DNA of 64,000 nt from an uncultured Rikenellaceae bacterium (GTDB lineage Bacteria; Bacteroidota; Bacteroidia; Bacteroidales; Rikenellaceae), in assembly GCA_964600025.1 (NCBI GenBank), contig CAZRHJ010000004.1:11833-75832 (forward strand), given 5' to 3'. Shown piece after piece: positions 4,314-61,490 of the stretch (its first letter is position 1; each line of letters begins with the position of its first letter). The notes beneath the pieces are model-generated. The model was not told the origin of the DNA, searched no databases, and saw nothing but the letters and a program-made list of their open reading frames with translations. A program made the position numbers and the translations under genes.

Positions 4314-4316
<3 letters not shown>

Positions 4317-4436
4317 TACTGTCTGCTAAAAAAAGTAAAAAGGTAATTTCAGAAAACTCTGTTTTCTGAAATTACCTTTTTTAAATTTTTACCTTTCTGA
4401 AATTGTCCAAGTTTCATTTTTAGCGGACAGTACTAT
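4314..4436. repeat. Repeat family copy A: paired termini enclosing a bidirectional terminator
   Basis: TAGTACTGTCTGCTAAAAA at the left end and TTTTTAGCGGACAGTACTA at the right end form an inverted repeat with 1 mismatch. The interior shares the TTTCTGAAATTGTCCAAG piece with copies J and K. The lacZ TAG stop lies in the left terminus. Confidence 0.65.
4337..4382. terminator. Bidirectional intrinsic terminator between lacZ and rpoN
   Basis: AAAAAGGTAATTTCAGAAAAC-TCT-GTTTTCTGAAATTACCTTTTTT; A and T runs on both sides. Confidence 0.8.
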
Positions 4437-5873
4437 TTAAAATTCTTTTCGCATACGAGCTACGGGAATATCCAACATTTCACGATATTTTGCCACTGTT
4501 CTACGTGCAATTTTGTAGCCTTTGTCTTGCAAAATATCCATTAATGCTCCGTCTGTAAGCGGATTGCGTTTTTCTTCGTTATCGACACATTCTTGAAGGA
4601 TTGTTTTTATTTCTCTTGACGAAACTTCTTCGCCATCTGCGGTTTTCATTGCCTCAGAGAAGAAATATTTGAGAGGATATATCCCAAAATCTGTTTGAAT
4701 ATATTTGCTATTTGCCACTCTCGAAACCGTCGAAACGTCCAATCCGGTCAAATCCGAAATATCTTTTAGAATCATTGGTTTGAGTTTTGTTTCGTCGCCA
4801 TCTTGAAAATACTCTTTTTGGAAATCCAAAATGGCATTCATAGTCATAAGCATAGTAACGTTACGTTGTTTTATGGCAGAGATAAACCATTTTGCAGATT
4901 CTATTTTTTGCTTGATAAATTGTGCTGCTTCTTTGTTTTCTTCGGAAGTGAAATCTGATTCTTTGTCCGATTTACTTTCTTTGATTAAAGATGATAGTAA
5001 TTCAAGATAACTTTTATTTATTTTGACTTCACCATTAGATGATTTTCCCAACGAAACTTCTAATATCCCGTCTTGGTTCTCCAAAACGAAATCTGGAACT
5101 ATTTGTATTGTTGGTTCGCTTTGCAAATGTTCGGTATATAAATTTGCAGGTTTTGGAGATAAATTTGTTATCACGTTTATTGCGTTCCTAAGTTCCTCTT
5201 CTTCGAGTTCGTATTTTAGTATGATTTTGTCATAGTGTTTGCGTGAGAATTGCTCAAAACTTTCTTTTATTATTTTTATAGCCAAGAGTGTTGAGGAAGT
5301 TTTGGGTAAATAATTTAGTTGGATTAACAGAGTTTCTTGCAAATCACGTGCAGCAATTCCGTGTGGTTCAAGACTTTGAACCAGAGCCAAAGCCTCTTCT
5401 ATTTGTGGCATTTCAACGTCCAAACCCATATTAAATGCTAAATCATCTTGGATACTTTCTAAATCTCGACGTAAATAACCATTTCTGTCAAGTGAGCCAA
5501 TAATGTATTGAGCAACCAAATATGTAGTATCATTTGTTTGCAAAAATGATAGTTGTTCGTTCAGATATTCTGTGATTGTCAAGCCGTCCGAAAGAGGCAT
5601 TGTAAATACCTTATCATCTTGCGAATGATTGTTTATATTTAGTTTGTAATAAGGTATTTCCTCTTGTCGTTTATATTCTTCTATGTCAATTTCTTTGGAT
5701 TCGTAATCATCGTGTTCAGTATCTTCTTCAAGTGCAGGATTTTCTTCAATTTCTTTTTTGATACGTTGTTCAAGTTGAATAGTAGGCAACTCCAAAAGTT
5801 TTATCATTTGGATTTGTTGAGGCGAAAGACGTTGCAACATCTTTTGCACCTGACTTTGGCTTAATTTATTCAT
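4437..5873 (-). CDS. rpoN: RNA polymerase sigma-54 factor
   Basis: Gln-rich N-terminus, an acidic region, and the C-terminal RpoN box ARRTVAKYREMLDIP. Confidence 0.93.
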   Translation of the reverse strand: MNKLSQSQVQKMLQRLSPQQIQMIKLLELPTIQLEQRIKKEIEENPALEEDTEHDDYESKEIDIEEYKRQEEIPYYKLNINNHSQDDKVFTMPLSDGLTITEYLNEQLSFLQTNDTTYLVAQYIIGSLDRNGYLRRDLESIQDDLAFNMGLDVEMPQIEEALALVQSLEPHGIAARDLQETLLIQLNYLPKTSSTLLAIKIIKESFEQFSRKHYDKIILKYELEEEELRNAINVITNLSPKPANLYTEHLQSEPTIQIVPDFVLENQDGILEVSLGKSSNGEVKINKSYLELLSSLIKESKSDKESDFTSEENKEAAQFIKQKIESAKWFISAIKQRNVTMLMTMNAILDFQKEYFQDGDETKLKPMILKDISDLTGLDVSTVSRVANSKYIQTDFGIYPLKYFFSEAMKTADGEEVSSREIKTILQECVDNEEKRNPLTDGALMDILQDKGYKIARRTVAKYREMLDIPVARMRKEF

Positions 5874-5887
5874 ATCTTTTGAGTTTT

Positions 5888-5981
5888 AATACTGTCTGCA
5901 AAATATCCTAAGAAGTCTGAGTTTGTGCGAGTGTGTATAATTTCTGTACGGTAAAAAATGTTTTTACCAGACAGTAATATT
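5888..5981 (+). repeat. Repeat family copy B: internally deleted (left terminus joined to right arm)
   Basis: AATACTGTCTGC joined directly to AAAATATCCTAAGAAGTCTGAGTTT ... TTTTTACCAGACAGTAATA. Confidence 0.7.
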
Positions 5982-6022
5982 TAAGTTTGTACCACATTAA
6001 TAATCAAAAACCGTGCAAAACC

Positions 6023-61135: not shown

Positions 61136-61167
61136 ATTCTCCCCTTATCTTAATAGAATTTATAGAG

Positions 61168-61175
61168 CAAAGATA
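61168..61175 (-). promoter_or_regulatory. -7 box TATCTTTG upstream of the TPR-AraC regulator
   Basis: The reverse complement of CAAAGATA matches TAnnTTTG. Confidence 0.45.
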
Positions 61176-61321
61176 AACTTATTTCCAGAAATACGGCAAA
61201 ATTTTTTCTTGTTTTTGGAAAAATATGCAAAAAATCTATTTTCAAGAATAAGTAATTACATAAATAAGAATACTTGTGTATAGCTATTGACAAGAGTTTT
61301 TAAAGTTGTAACTTTGAATTA

Positions 61322-61453
61322 CAGAAAAACATTTAAAGTCTTTTAGTTATACCCCTTTGACTAAAAGTATGGACAAGCCACTGCATATATTCTTGTTTGT
61401 TTTTGGGTTGCAGGTAGTTATTCCTTTTAACTAATTGGCTTGTCCTTTTTTTT
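61322..61453 (+). ncRNA. Candidate small RNA (orphan promoter plus terminator)
   Basis: TAACTTTG box at 61309-61316. Downstream are hairpin CTTTTAGT/ACTAAAAG and closing stem GGACAAGCCA (61371-61380) / TGGCTTGTCC (61436-61445), followed by T8. There is no plus-strand CDS upstream. Confidence 0.3.
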
Positions 61454-61490
61454 AGAACTATCCGCTAAAACCCAAACTCTCCTATTTTGT
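61453..61490 (+). repeat. Repeat family copy M: solo left end overlapping the comF stop codon
   Basis: TAGAACTATCCGCTAAAACCCAAACTCTCCTATTTTGT resembles the left end of copy L. Confidence 0.6.

Follow-up and report, generated by a model that had tools for sequence, protein, structure and literature searches.

What are the short, hairpin-forming repeats that crowd the spaces between genes in this 64-kb stretch of DNA (hereafter the window, i.e., the whole sequence that was analysed), and how did they reach so many positions? The lineage is described as uncultured, low-GC, Rikenellaceae-like Bacteroidales. An earlier note had listed 16 intervals with what it called a modular, "MITE/REP-like" element. 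The evidence assembled here indicates that the elements are very probably non-autonomous MITEs, gene-less derivatives of an IS4-family insertion sequence (IS) of Bacteroidota, which would have been moved in trans. The family itself is new, and its kind is already known.

A profile search of the window retrieved nine long and about seven partial copies with E-values to 1e-53 (the nhmmer profile for the type-1 elements was first built from six full copies and later rebuilt from nine), and a 19-nt core motif occurs seven times, compared with 0 in 100 shuffles. All 16 intervals of the earlier note hold the described repeat, that at 16232-16276 being the weakest. These 16 loci account for 3.2% of all bases in the window and for 30% of those between genes. 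MITEs are small (about 50-800 bp) and non-coding; the elements (45-257 bp) have no stop-free stretch above 53 aa, and 2038 of their 2050 bases are intergenic, so that their description as ORF-less and strictly intergenic is upheld. When boundaries are set by a uniform rule, with each terminus 6 nt outside a TGTCTGC anchor, full type-1 copies measure 157 bp, a small correction to the 154-156 bp given previously. The elements are listed below in window order.

4314-4435, no strand assigned: A, type 3 MITE of 122 bp, with termini TAGTACTGTCTGCTAAAAA / TTTTTAGCGGACAGTACTA forming a near-perfect 19-nt inverted pair; it occupies the entire gap between the convergent genes lacZ and rpoN, is not matched by the type-1 profile, and its flanks agree at 3/9 positions (no target-site duplication).
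4337-4381, both strands: interior of A, a 20-bp two-way terminator-like hairpin.
5887-5979, plus strand: B, internally deleted type-1 MITE of 93 bp (nhmmer 5891-5956, profile positions 88-154), its left terminus joined directly to the right arm at a common TCTGC(T)AAAA microhomology; 9-bp duplication TTTGAGTTT / TTTAAGTTT, matching at 8/9.
8795-8951, plus strand: C, full type-1 MITE of the young group, 157 bp (E = 2e-49 to 2e-52); flanks match at 6/9, or more if a 1-nt indel is allowed, so that the duplication is ambiguous.
8961-8999, plus strand: C', lone left end of 39 nt (nhmmer 8962-8998, E = 2e-7; repeat family D5, 98%), starting 9 nt past C; the repeat of the left end between C' and C runs about 8 nt on into the flank.
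11743-11857, minus strand: E1, type-2 MITE (type-2 profile E = 1.7e-26 to 2e-27), whose terminus at 11857 (TATTGCTGCCTGATAAAAA read inward) is intact and whose opposite end is degraded.
15340-15496, plus strand: D, reference full type-1 MITE, 157 bp (hit 15341-15496, E = 1e-50 to 1e-53); perfect 9-bp target-site duplication TTTACCAAC at 15331-15339 and 15497-15505, the right-hand copy containing the ung stop codon.
16232-16276, no strand assigned: E2, tentative remnant of 45 bp with facing termini ATATTGCTGTTTGCTAAAAC ... AAAAAACAGCAAT (2 mismatches), not matched by the profile and the weakest member of the family.
19799-19955, plus strand: F, full-length but diverged type-1 MITE (hit 19800-19954, E = 4e-40; 87% identical to D), directly past the infC terminator (19754-19780) and ending 7 nt upstream of the start codon of a MATE transporter gene; flanks 3/9, no duplication.
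29505-29652, minus strand: G, old type-1 MITE (hit 29513-29650, E = 3.5e-23 to 8e-32; 82% to D) with degraded termini, between converging terminators at 29453-29494 (plus) and 29681-29654 (minus).
41446-41616, minus strand: H, oldest type-1 MITE, 171 bp (hit 41454-41615, E = 8e-20 to 1e-33; 68% to D); flanks 5/9, no duplication.
43972-44075, minus strand: I, truncated or internally deleted type-1 copy (nhmmer 44005-44064, E = 3.5e-11), directly past a terminator (43936-43964), its end adjoining the asnS stop codon.
50581-50720, minus strand: J, rearranged copy (nhmmer 50636-50690) consisting of a type-1 left-arm fragment and two abutting termini, with a terminus at 50701-50713 (1 mismatch).
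51062-51171, plus strand: left part of K, type-2 MITE (type-2 profile E = 2e-28) whose outer terminus is intact and whose inner end is truncated, homologous to a free-standing type-2 element with both termini at 415-526 of contig L001.
51163-51318, minus strand: right part of K, young type-1 core (E = 1e-50 to 1.6e-52; 98% to C and D). K as a whole is a 257-bp tail-to-tail fusion of type 2 and type 1, flanked by ATTAAGGTT / ATTAAAGTT (8/9) and placed between a cobalamin riboswitch (50788-50971) and the nrdD start codon.
57613-57774, minus strand: L, type-1 MITE (hit 57625-57774, E = 1e-48; 94% to D), immediately preceded by a terminator hairpin (57579-57612); the terminus on the IRR side (window-left, 57613) is degraded.
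58848-59003, plus strand: M, full type-1 MITE with both termini (hit 58849-59003, E = 2e-46; 81% to D); duplication GTGTTTTTT / GTATTTTTT, 8/9.
61453-61490, plus strand: N, lone left end of 38 nt (nhmmer 61454-61490, E = 0.001-0.002; repeat family D5), overlapping the final 9 nt of a ComF-like ORF.

Their position "usually just past a terminator" holds for about half of the copies: a scan placed a terminator-like hairpin directly beside F, G, I, L and M, one beside D was recognised by eye, and in A it lies inside the element. The ends of F, C', E2 and J fall 7-30 nt from start codons.

Three of the intervals (4314-4436, 11758-11857 and 16232-16276) are without a match to the type-1 profile. 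The first is related to type 1 by its 19-nt inverted termini only and has a different interior, and the second constitutes, together with the left 110 nt of 51062-51318, a second subfamily. At least three MITE types with unrelated interiors and one common set of ends are present: type 1, an almost complete palindrome of 157 bp; type 2, of about 123 bp; and type 3, of 122 bp and with a terminator hairpin. The "modular" appearance is explained by this sharing of ends among at least three subfamilies, by the tail-to-tail fusion K and by the internal deletions in B, I and J. The remaining members are products of fusion or of internal deletion at microhomologies, or are lone ends, and the arrangements of C/C' and J are not accounted for by one simple insertion. 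C' may have arisen either by a targeted second insertion or by a partial tandem duplication.

The copies differ considerably in age, in line with the previously reported mixture of young and old elements. C and D are near-identical (96% over 157 nt), C, D and the core of K are 98% alike, and identity to D falls from L through F, G and M to H. Ongoing amplification would be compatible with the 98%-identical C/D/K group, in which duplications are intact or near-intact.

The terminal inverted repeats claimed for the family are confirmed by the consensus TAKTRC-TGTCTGS-TAAAAA, which A, B, C, D, F, K and M carry at each end. Its 13-nt core, with up to 3 mismatches allowed, occurs at 69 sites compared with 33.6 in shuffles, and every site with 0 or 1 mismatch is an element end. 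With uniform ends and no offsets, four of eight elements are flanked by a 9-bp duplication (D at 9/9; B, K and M at 8/9); as a match of at least 8/9 would arise by chance with a probability of 4.9e-4, this corresponds to P of about 4e-12. When offsets are allowed, 6 of 12 elements reach 8/9, against a null value of 0.019. Half of the two-ended elements (A, C, F and H) have no clear duplication, and its lack in A, F and H and its ambiguity in C agree with decay in older copies.

The ends lead to a plausible parent. A 24-nt terminus pattern matched 11 metagenome contigs (33-50% GC), none of which contains the type-1 core. Among these contigs are other MITEs with the same ends and unrelated interiors (L056, 140 bp; L061, 295 bp), and L062, on which the terminus forms the left end of an IS and precedes a leader of 101 nt and a complete transposase ORF of 403 aa. 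This ORF bears the Pfam domains DUF4372 (1e-20) and DDE_Tnp_1 (2e-25), scores 208 bits against the NCBIfam model NF033592 "IS4 family transposase" (cut-off 115) and contains YRRRWQIELLFKQLK, the Y-2-R-3-E-6-K signature that defines the IS4 family. Its homologs provided full IS copies with both ends (L066-68, L071-72), 1402-1410 bp long, with IRL TATTGTTGTCCGATAAAAAACG and IRR TTTTTATCGGACAACAATA. The parent IS is of about 1.4 kb and encodes one transposase of 403-410 aa, with an N-terminal DUF4372 and a DDE_Tnp_1 catalytic domain; its inverted repeats take the form TATTG(T/C)TGTCCGGTAAAAA, and the MITE termini match the IS4-family IS ends at up to 24/24 bases. The annotated relatives found by tblastn of the transposase against plasmids, ISGme2 and ISAbe18, are only 31-33% identical.

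Perfect 9-bp duplications (ATTTAAAAT and TTATAAATT) flank the two IS copies that lie on long contigs (L071, 939 kb, and L072, 156 kb). Target duplications of the IS4 family are about 8-13 bp, those of IS10 and IS50 being 9 bp. A 62%-identical IS has no duplication at three distinct sites on four short-read contigs (two seemingly of the same site), which may reflect chimeric assembly across the repeat.

A further link is the GGGGCTTG motif, which lies directly past the transposase stop codon in the IS and recurs beside the right terminus of type 1 (GGGAGCTTG), type 2 (GGGGCTTGG) and the L056 MITE, in apparent agreement with a descent from the 3' end of the IS. Gapped local alignment of MITE interiors with the IS ends was convincing only at the termini and at this motif. 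The matching IS copies come from other Bacteroidota, and what they have in common with the MITEs is confined to the termini and the short subterminal motif. The earlier note had suggested a search for a transposase gene with the same termini. Neither the 64-kb window nor the 16 kb from a sister bin (L001/L036) contains a transposase homolog; the IS with such ends occurs in other organisms. The first 137 nt of the IS fold end to end, because transposase codons 6-12 repeat the left end in inverted orientation. As a speculation, this fold may represent a ready-made "proto-MITE" and could explain the many unrelated MITE lineages.

The family, its inverted termini and its 9-bp duplications are observed directly, as is the match of its ends to a real IS4-family IS that duplicates 9 bp. 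Of the IS, such MITEs would retain only the ends, around a short interior. The transposase would come in trans from a full-length IS elsewhere, bind both ends, excise the element and insert it into an AT-rich site, where a 9-bp staggered cut would be repaired into a 9-bp direct duplication. Three or more MITE lineages with unrelated interiors would use the same ends in this manner. The cut-and-paste chemistry is suggested by analogy with the studied IS4-family members IS10 and IS50. We infer current activity, and a helper IS, which we assume to reside in the source genome.

As to the alternative of a local duplication, which the earlier note had considered, a second, related genome bin (L001, L036) carries types 1 and 2 and adds four more copies in 16 kb. 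These two contigs were the only real matches in a scan of species-representative genomes (596 Gb) with a 17-base core, in which 47 of 49 loci were due to chance. Exact matches to window proteins are absent from the collections searched, and the nearest relatives represented there (ThrRS 83% identical) have a different gene order, non-syntenic insertion sites and no copies; they bear a different hairpin repeat instead. Copies are likewise absent from L073 and L074, relatives of the sister bin with 43-45% GC, and from viral contigs scanned with the core and terminus patterns.

The long end-to-end hairpin described for the element is real, one strand folding at -46.4 kcal/mol (z -5.8) and its complement at -60.0 kcal/mol (z -7.5). 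Covariation in the hairpin does not exceed that of shuffled controls (score 0.078, compared with 0.080 on average after shuffling and equalled or exceeded in 318 of 500 shuffles), RNAalifold did not recover the long hairpin, and Watson-Crick pairs become fewer in older copies (48 of 52 in D, 26 in the copy on L001). Because of this lack of covariation and the decay in older copies, we interpret the hairpin as inherited from the founder copy and not as a selected or conserved RNA structure. A reading as conserved RNA was dropped, as RNAalifold and pair counting both gave no covariation support. Rfam searches of the whole window at gathering score yielded a cobalamin riboswitch, tRNA and noise only, and those around copy D at E = 10 no family match; the Rfam check proposed in the earlier note was negative for the family. 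A promoter-like role was also rejected, since a sigma-70 scan was no richer than shuffles, and on inspection no Bacteroidota TAnnTTTG box was seen at outward-facing element ends.

MITEs by origin might nevertheless have been adopted in part by the host, some copies acting as two-way terminators, as mRNA-stabilising or RNase-processing hairpins or as leader elements, which would explain their persistence at such density at gene ends. We regard this as rather unlikely. In its favour, A fills the lacZ/rpoN gap exactly with its terminator-like hairpin; K lies in the leader between the riboswitch and nrdD, within which it must be transcribed; F, C', E2 and J end close to start codons; and the strand opposite the IS sense strand folds better (-60 versus -46 kcal/mol) because of four shared C-A/G-U positions. 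Correia, ERIC and SPRITE elements are known to play roles of this sort (PMC10969869). The level of covariation, the loss of pairing with age and the negative Rfam searches speak against it, as does orientation, for both orientations relative to neighbouring transcription are found with no bias.

It is highly improbable that the elements are multi-copy small non-coding RNA genes or cis-regulatory motifs spread by duplication and not by transposition. Such an origin would suit the strong and significant fold, the intergenic placement of the copies and the conservation of their core in the young ones, but no Rfam family matches, covariation is absent and no promoter or terminator of their own is consistently positioned around the copies. 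Instead, target-site duplications and inverted termini indicate transposition, and transposons in decay typically leave truncated, fused and lone-end copies.

Hardly credible is a REP/BIME-like or IS200/IS605-type palindrome, moved as a single-stranded hairpin by a Y1 transposase (RAYT): the elements are indeed long imperfect palindromes, intergenic, numerous and often beside terminators, but they are bounded by terminal inverted repeats of 19-24 nt and flanked by target duplications of 9 bp; their termini match a DDE-type IS4-family element at up to 24/24 bases, their length of 157 bp far exceeds the 20-40 nt of REPs, and three different interiors have the same ends, implying that the ends are recognised and not the hairpin. 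Neither REPs, which need RAYT-type enzymes, nor Y1-transposase elements are known to have terminal inverted repeats or target duplications, and no RAYT-like gene was among the window ORFs scanned. Of the "MITE/REP-like" label, the first half therefore stands on the IS4-family termini and 9-bp duplications, and the second is not supported, given the inverted termini and target duplications.

What sets these MITEs apart is their density of about 250 per Mb among housekeeping genes; the kind of element is ordinary. Neisseria Correia elements occur at a lower density. The present figure, derived from 64 kb plus 16 kb by a counting method unlike that of the census, exceeds, together with the 3.2% share, the maximum of a MITE census (123 per Mb and 1.23%; PMC11602168). 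Should the window be typical, a third of the intergenic DNA would be taken up by some 250 copies per Mb, set against stop and start codons. With considerable reserve we suggest that the lineage may show one of the densest bacterial MITE expansions, part of it (A, K) maybe co-opted.

The MITE interpretation has practical consequences, as the repeats would account for about a third of the non-coding DNA in the lineage. Annotation should mask or label them, lest they be taken for small RNAs, regulatory motifs or assembly errors. Short-read assemblies of such genomes are likely to break at them, and they offer markers for strain typing. The insertion between a riboswitch and its gene, the contacts with stop codons and the terminator carrier are natural test cases for how a compact genome tolerates or uses such elements. 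The family involves no new kind of mobile element and no new mechanism; it links the common but little-studied DUF4372 + DDE transposases of Bacteroidota to their ends, a 9-bp duplication and several MITE lineages from hosts of 33-50% GC.

Several known systems invite comparison. In the Bacillus cereus group, cassettes derived from IS231, MIC231 among them, are likewise non-autonomous, have IS4-family ends and are moved in trans by the cognate transposase. They belong to another IS4 subgroup with other ends, often carry passenger genes, are larger and far fewer in number, and IS231 duplications are 10-12 bp. The Correia elements of Neisseria, ORF-less units of about 100-260 bp with TIRs and target-site duplications, resemble the present family in being intergenic, in both orientations and often beside gene starts or ends, in their internally deleted subtypes, in forming a stable hairpin upon transcription and in reaching hundreds of copies (PMC10969869). 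They differ in their ends and inferred parent, the BrickBuilt paper listing the IS5-family ISNme1 with Correia-like TIRs (PMC4596501), whereas here the ends match an IS4-family IS and the duplication is 9 bp. Within the Bacteroidales, the MITEs of Porphyromonas gingivalis (BrickBuilt, MITE239, MITEPgRS/464 and MITE700) have inverted repeats matching resident ISs, are intergenic and comprise several types with common ends and differing interiors (PMC4596501). They differ in their IS5-family origin, in ends such as GAGACCTTTGCA or ACGTCAGTTCGA, in numbering 10-20 copies per genome and in having variable or absent duplications, and there is no sequence similarity between them and our family. A parallels the SPRITE repeats of Streptococcus pneumoniae as a repeat with a terminator-like hairpin at gene ends (PMC10969869); type 3 is single-copy here, however, its termini tie it to the IS4-type family, and its terminator activity is predicted. 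A further comparison is with the DUF4372 + DDE_Tnp_1 ISs of the IS4 family (NF033592), widespread in Bacteroidota: the window elements lack their transposase gene, are one tenth their size and have unrelated interiors, but share with them the identical terminus TATTG(Y)TGTCYGGTAAAAA, the 9-bp target duplication and the GGGGCTTG subterminal motif near the right end.

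Repeat finding within the window pairs copy C (8798-8954) with copy D (15343-15499), two young copies of the elements, at 96% identity over 157 nt, and each is 96-97% complementary to a third copy, at 51178-51318. An nhmmer profile, made first with six full copies and later with nine, returned eight long matches in the window (E-values 1e-53 to 1e-20) as well as fragments, and a related genome bin supplied the ninth long copy. A 19-nt core motif occurs seven times in the window vs. zero times in 100 shuffles. An earlier note had placed one and the same element at 16 intervals; related sequence is indeed present at all 16, but three of them have a different interior. 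The fragments and further intervals are:

44005-44064: fragment match of the profile
5891-5956: fragment match of the profile
8962-8998: fragment match of the profile
50636-50690: fragment match of the profile
61454-61490: fragment match of the profile
4314-4436: element with only the termini in common with type 1, the type of the 157-bp full copies
11758-11857 and the left 110 nt of 51062-51318: second subfamily (type 2), E = 2e-27 and 2e-28
16232-16276: 45-bp remnant, two termini facing each other

Further points of that note agree with our results. Full copies fold end to end into a hairpin (folding energies of the two strands -46.4 and -60.0 kcal/mol, z -5.8 and -7.5, respectively), the elements have no coding capacity, 2038 of their 2050 bases lie outside genes, and about half of them directly adjoin a terminator-like hairpin. 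They account for 3.2% of the window and for 30% of the intergenic sequence in it, and are present in 14 of the 27 intergenic gaps of at least 30 nt. Young and old copies occur side by side, as had been noted: C, D and K are 98% alike, followed by L (94%), F (87%), G (82%), M (81%) and H (68%). Judged by these identities, the age structure of the copies is clear.

The termini were aligned on the anchor TGTCTGC, with each end set 6 nt outside it, which shows TAKTRC-TGTCTGS-TAAAAA as the consensus of the two ends in A, B, C, D, F, K and M. The flanking 9-mers were then compared at these fixed boundaries, no offset being allowed:

D: left TTTACCAAC, right TTTACCAAC, 9/9 match
B: left TTTGAGTTT, right TTTAAGTTT, 8/9 match
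K: left ATTAAGGTT, right ATTAAAGTT, 8/9 match, consensus ATTAA(G/A)GTT
M: left GTGTTTTTT, right GTATTTTTT, 8/9 match, consensus GT(G/A)TTTTTT

A match of at least 8/9 has a chance probability of 4.9e-4 (random position pairs in the window), so that four of eight correspond to P ~4e-12; a clear duplication is absent in half of the two-ended copies of the window. The elements thus bear 9-bp target-site duplications, the footprint that a staggered-cut DDE transposase leaves. Exactly 9 nt past copy C stands a lone left end, C' (the whole arrangement spans 8786-8999), and the similarity of the two left ends continues into the flank for ~8 nt (TATTATAT). Such an arrangement goes beyond a single simple insertion and may derive from an insertion targeted beside an existing end or from a partial tandem duplication.

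A metagenome collection was scanned with the 24-nt terminus pattern TATTGYTGTCYRKTAAAAATTTYA, which is present in 11 contigs (GC 33-50%); an element starts at the match in all of them, and the type-1 core occurs in none of the 11. Three of these contigs, from one sample, have the same terminus and a common interior, and one of them, L056, which contains both ends, holds a 140-bp MITE (a miniature gene-less transposon derivative) with the ends of the window elements and an unrelated interior; another terminus contig has a MITE of 295 bp. The contigs L056, L059 and L060 (JGI24696J40584) and L061, which are Bacteroidota-like, possess MITEs of their own, of 140 bp and 295 bp, whose interiors are unrelated although the 24-nt termini are those of the window elements. 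Evidently, this group of insertion sequences (IS) has repeatedly spawned MITEs in different hosts.

On contig L062 a leader of 101 nt separates the terminus from a complete ORF of 403 aa, which has matches to DUF4372 (1e-20) and DDE_Tnp_1 (2e-25), a score of 208 bits against the NCBIfam IS4-family transposase model (cut-off 115), and the string YRRRWQIELLFKQLK, a Y-2-R-3-E-6-K signature. This signature defines the IS4 family, and on sequence grounds the ORF is an IS4-family transposase. Its homologs number in the thousands, the named ones from Salegentibacter and Algoriphagus, and led to full IS copies of 1402-1410 bp with the terminal inverted repeats TATTGTTGTCCGATAAAAAACG (left) and TTTTTATCGGACAACAATA (right; short form of the ends TATTGYTGTCYGG). 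Two IS copies that lie on long contigs are flanked by perfect duplications of 9 bp, ATTTAAAAT and TTATAAATT, and no duplication is seen on four short-read contigs of a related IS (three distinct insertion sites). Directly 3' of the transposase stop codon lies the motif GGGGCTTG, which is repeated beside the right terminus in three places; its counterpart is GGGAGCTTG in type-1 and GGGGCTTGG in type-2 elements, and it also stands beside the right terminus of the L056 MITE. This sharing agrees with an origin of the elements from the IS 3' end. No transposase was found within the window or in the chunks L001 and L036 of the sister genome bin.

In the parent IS, transposase codons 6-12 (H-F-T-G-Q-P; TTTTACCGGACAGC) repeat the left terminal repeat in inverted and the right one in direct orientation (L062 reverse strand 1338-1199; left ends of L066-L068 and L071-L072). 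Through this inverted repetition of the left end, the first 137 nt of the IS form an end-to-end fold (-47.7 kcal/mol, z -8.4). The left end amounts to a built-in MITE-like module. Its fold could block translation of read-through transcripts, and MITEs could arise from this arrangement if the sequence between the direct repeats were deleted or if the internal site served as an end.

The elements are very probably MITEs that lost the inner part of an IS of this IS4-family group and with it their autonomy, and the transposase of the group would move them in trans. By analogy with the studied family members IS10 and IS50, the movement would be of the cut-and-paste type. The modular look of the elements has three sources, the first being that at least three lineages have one set of ends in common:

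Type 1: 157 bp, near-complete palindrome
Type 2: ~123 bp, with a free-standing copy with both ends at L001 405-527
Type 3 (element A): 122 bp, terminator hairpin

Secondly, in K a type-2 and a type-1 element are fused tail to tail, with a single duplication flanking the whole. Thirdly, microhomology deletions occur, as in B, which joins TGTCTGC... straight to CATCTGCAAAA..., and the lone ends C' and N and the rearranged remnants I and J belong here as well.

The window (GC 35%) contains the housekeeping genes lacZ, rpoN, dusB, ung, thrS, infC, asnS, rsmI and nrdD, and its ThrRS is 83% identical to metagenome proteins and 77-78% to named proteins of Rikenellaceae, Gallalistipes and Tidjanibacter. 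The identical ThrRS is recorded on one NCBI contig of 78.8 kb. On these identities the window comes from an uncultured member of the Bacteroidales with low GC and kinship to the Rikenellaceae. Beyond the window, L001 and L036 of CAYQAU010000002.1 (GC 33-34%) hold a full type-1 copy, two type-1 ends and a complete type-2 element. The record of this contig bears the name 'uncultured Elusimicrobium sp.', but among the homologs of its SufB, at 77-84% identity, the named ones are all from Rikenellaceae or other Bacteroidales. SufB identity, GC and MITE content like that of the window therefore render the label or the binning suspect; probably one of them is wrong and the sequence belongs to the lineage of the window. 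The family was not found in relatives at 83% ThrRS identity (loci L050-L053), where a different hairpin repeat is found, in higher-GC relatives of the sister bin, in the JGI metagenome contigs matching the terminus, and in viral contigs. The type-1 family appears narrow in range and its ends widespread.

The repeat of these relatives, low-GC Bacteroidales, is hairpin-rich, ~300 nt long (...CTCGCTCCGAGCGTACGCACCGACATACGC...) and located downstream of infC (L050 13267-13752 vs. L051 13267-14068, and L052), as a single copy in one sample and as a tandem pair in two others with identical ThrRS. Beside their ung and thrS, a gene with a P22-portal-like domain and unannotated neighbours (L050/L051/L053 3323-5264) suggest a prophage remnant. 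The sister contig contains a CRISPR array of ~43 repeats (CTTTTAATCGAACCATCTGGAATTGAAAT; L001 840-3660) with a stray repeat at 4110-4145, the type I genes cas6 and cas3 (L036 2399-7161), and a region at ~4570-4990 that is tmRNA-like by its 3' end, for which ARAGORN made no call.

Several elements of the window abut genes closely. Element A (4314-4439 region) starts at the lacZ stop TAG (4314-4316) and ends 1 nt short of the rpoN stop; the ung stop codon falls inside the right 9-bp duplication of D (15497-15505); a MATE transporter gene has its start codon 7 nt past the end of F (19955-19963); and the lone end N covers the final 9 nt of a ComF-like ORF (61482-61490). The infC ORF (19015-19747) begins at position 37 of the IF-3 model, with a 325-nt gap before it. 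An unusual start codon is usual for infC, and the true start is probably such a codon further upstream. A cobalamin riboswitch (50788-50971, 98 bits) precedes nrdD (anaerobic ribonucleotide reductase, start at 51333), and the composite MITE K (257 bp, 51062-51318) sits between the two.

Co-option of some copies by the host is improbable as an explanation. It draws on A, which forms a two-way terminator-like hairpin between the convergent lacZ and rpoN and may matter locally, and on K, which from its position must be transcribed as a whole in the nrdD leader, separates the riboswitch expression platform from the start codon, and may likewise matter locally. When the 52 fold pairs of D were mapped onto the nine-copy alignment, covariation did not exceed shuffled controls (0.078 vs. 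0.080; 318 of 500 shuffles as high or higher); paired cells amount to 79.9% vs. 78.9% shuffled. Of the 52 pairs, 48 are Watson-Crick in D and 26 in the copy most distant from it, RNAalifold did not recover the long hairpin, and Rfam gave no match for the elements. Relative to the neighbour genes, copies occur in both orientations, whether the gap is convergent, divergent or tandem. We conclude that the hairpin goes back to the founder copy and is not maintained by selection. A small RNA gene family is unsupported on the same evidence. A reading as REP/BIME or IS200-type palindromic elements is rejected, as these have neither inverted termini nor target duplications, and 24 nt in common with a DDE-type IS would not be expected of them. 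A purely local duplication, finally, is excluded by the dispersal over 57 kb, the differing flanks and the occurrence in the second genome bin.

As MITEs of an IS4-family group, the elements can be compared with known systems. A fold-back arrangement is known from IS10, which the fold of the parent IS resembles. The density of the elements, ~250 loci per Mb and 3.2% of DNA on a base of 64 kb + 16 kb and by a counting method that differs from that of the census, compares with maxima of 123 per Mb and 1.23% among 183,232 genomes (PMC11602168), and is the one striking feature of the family. It is well known that bacteria, Bacteroidales included, harbour MITEs that stem from resident IS elements (PMC10969869). 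Those of P. gingivalis derive from IS5-family elements and have ends unrelated to those found here (PMC4596501), and the family of the window is a new and apparently unnamed MITE family.
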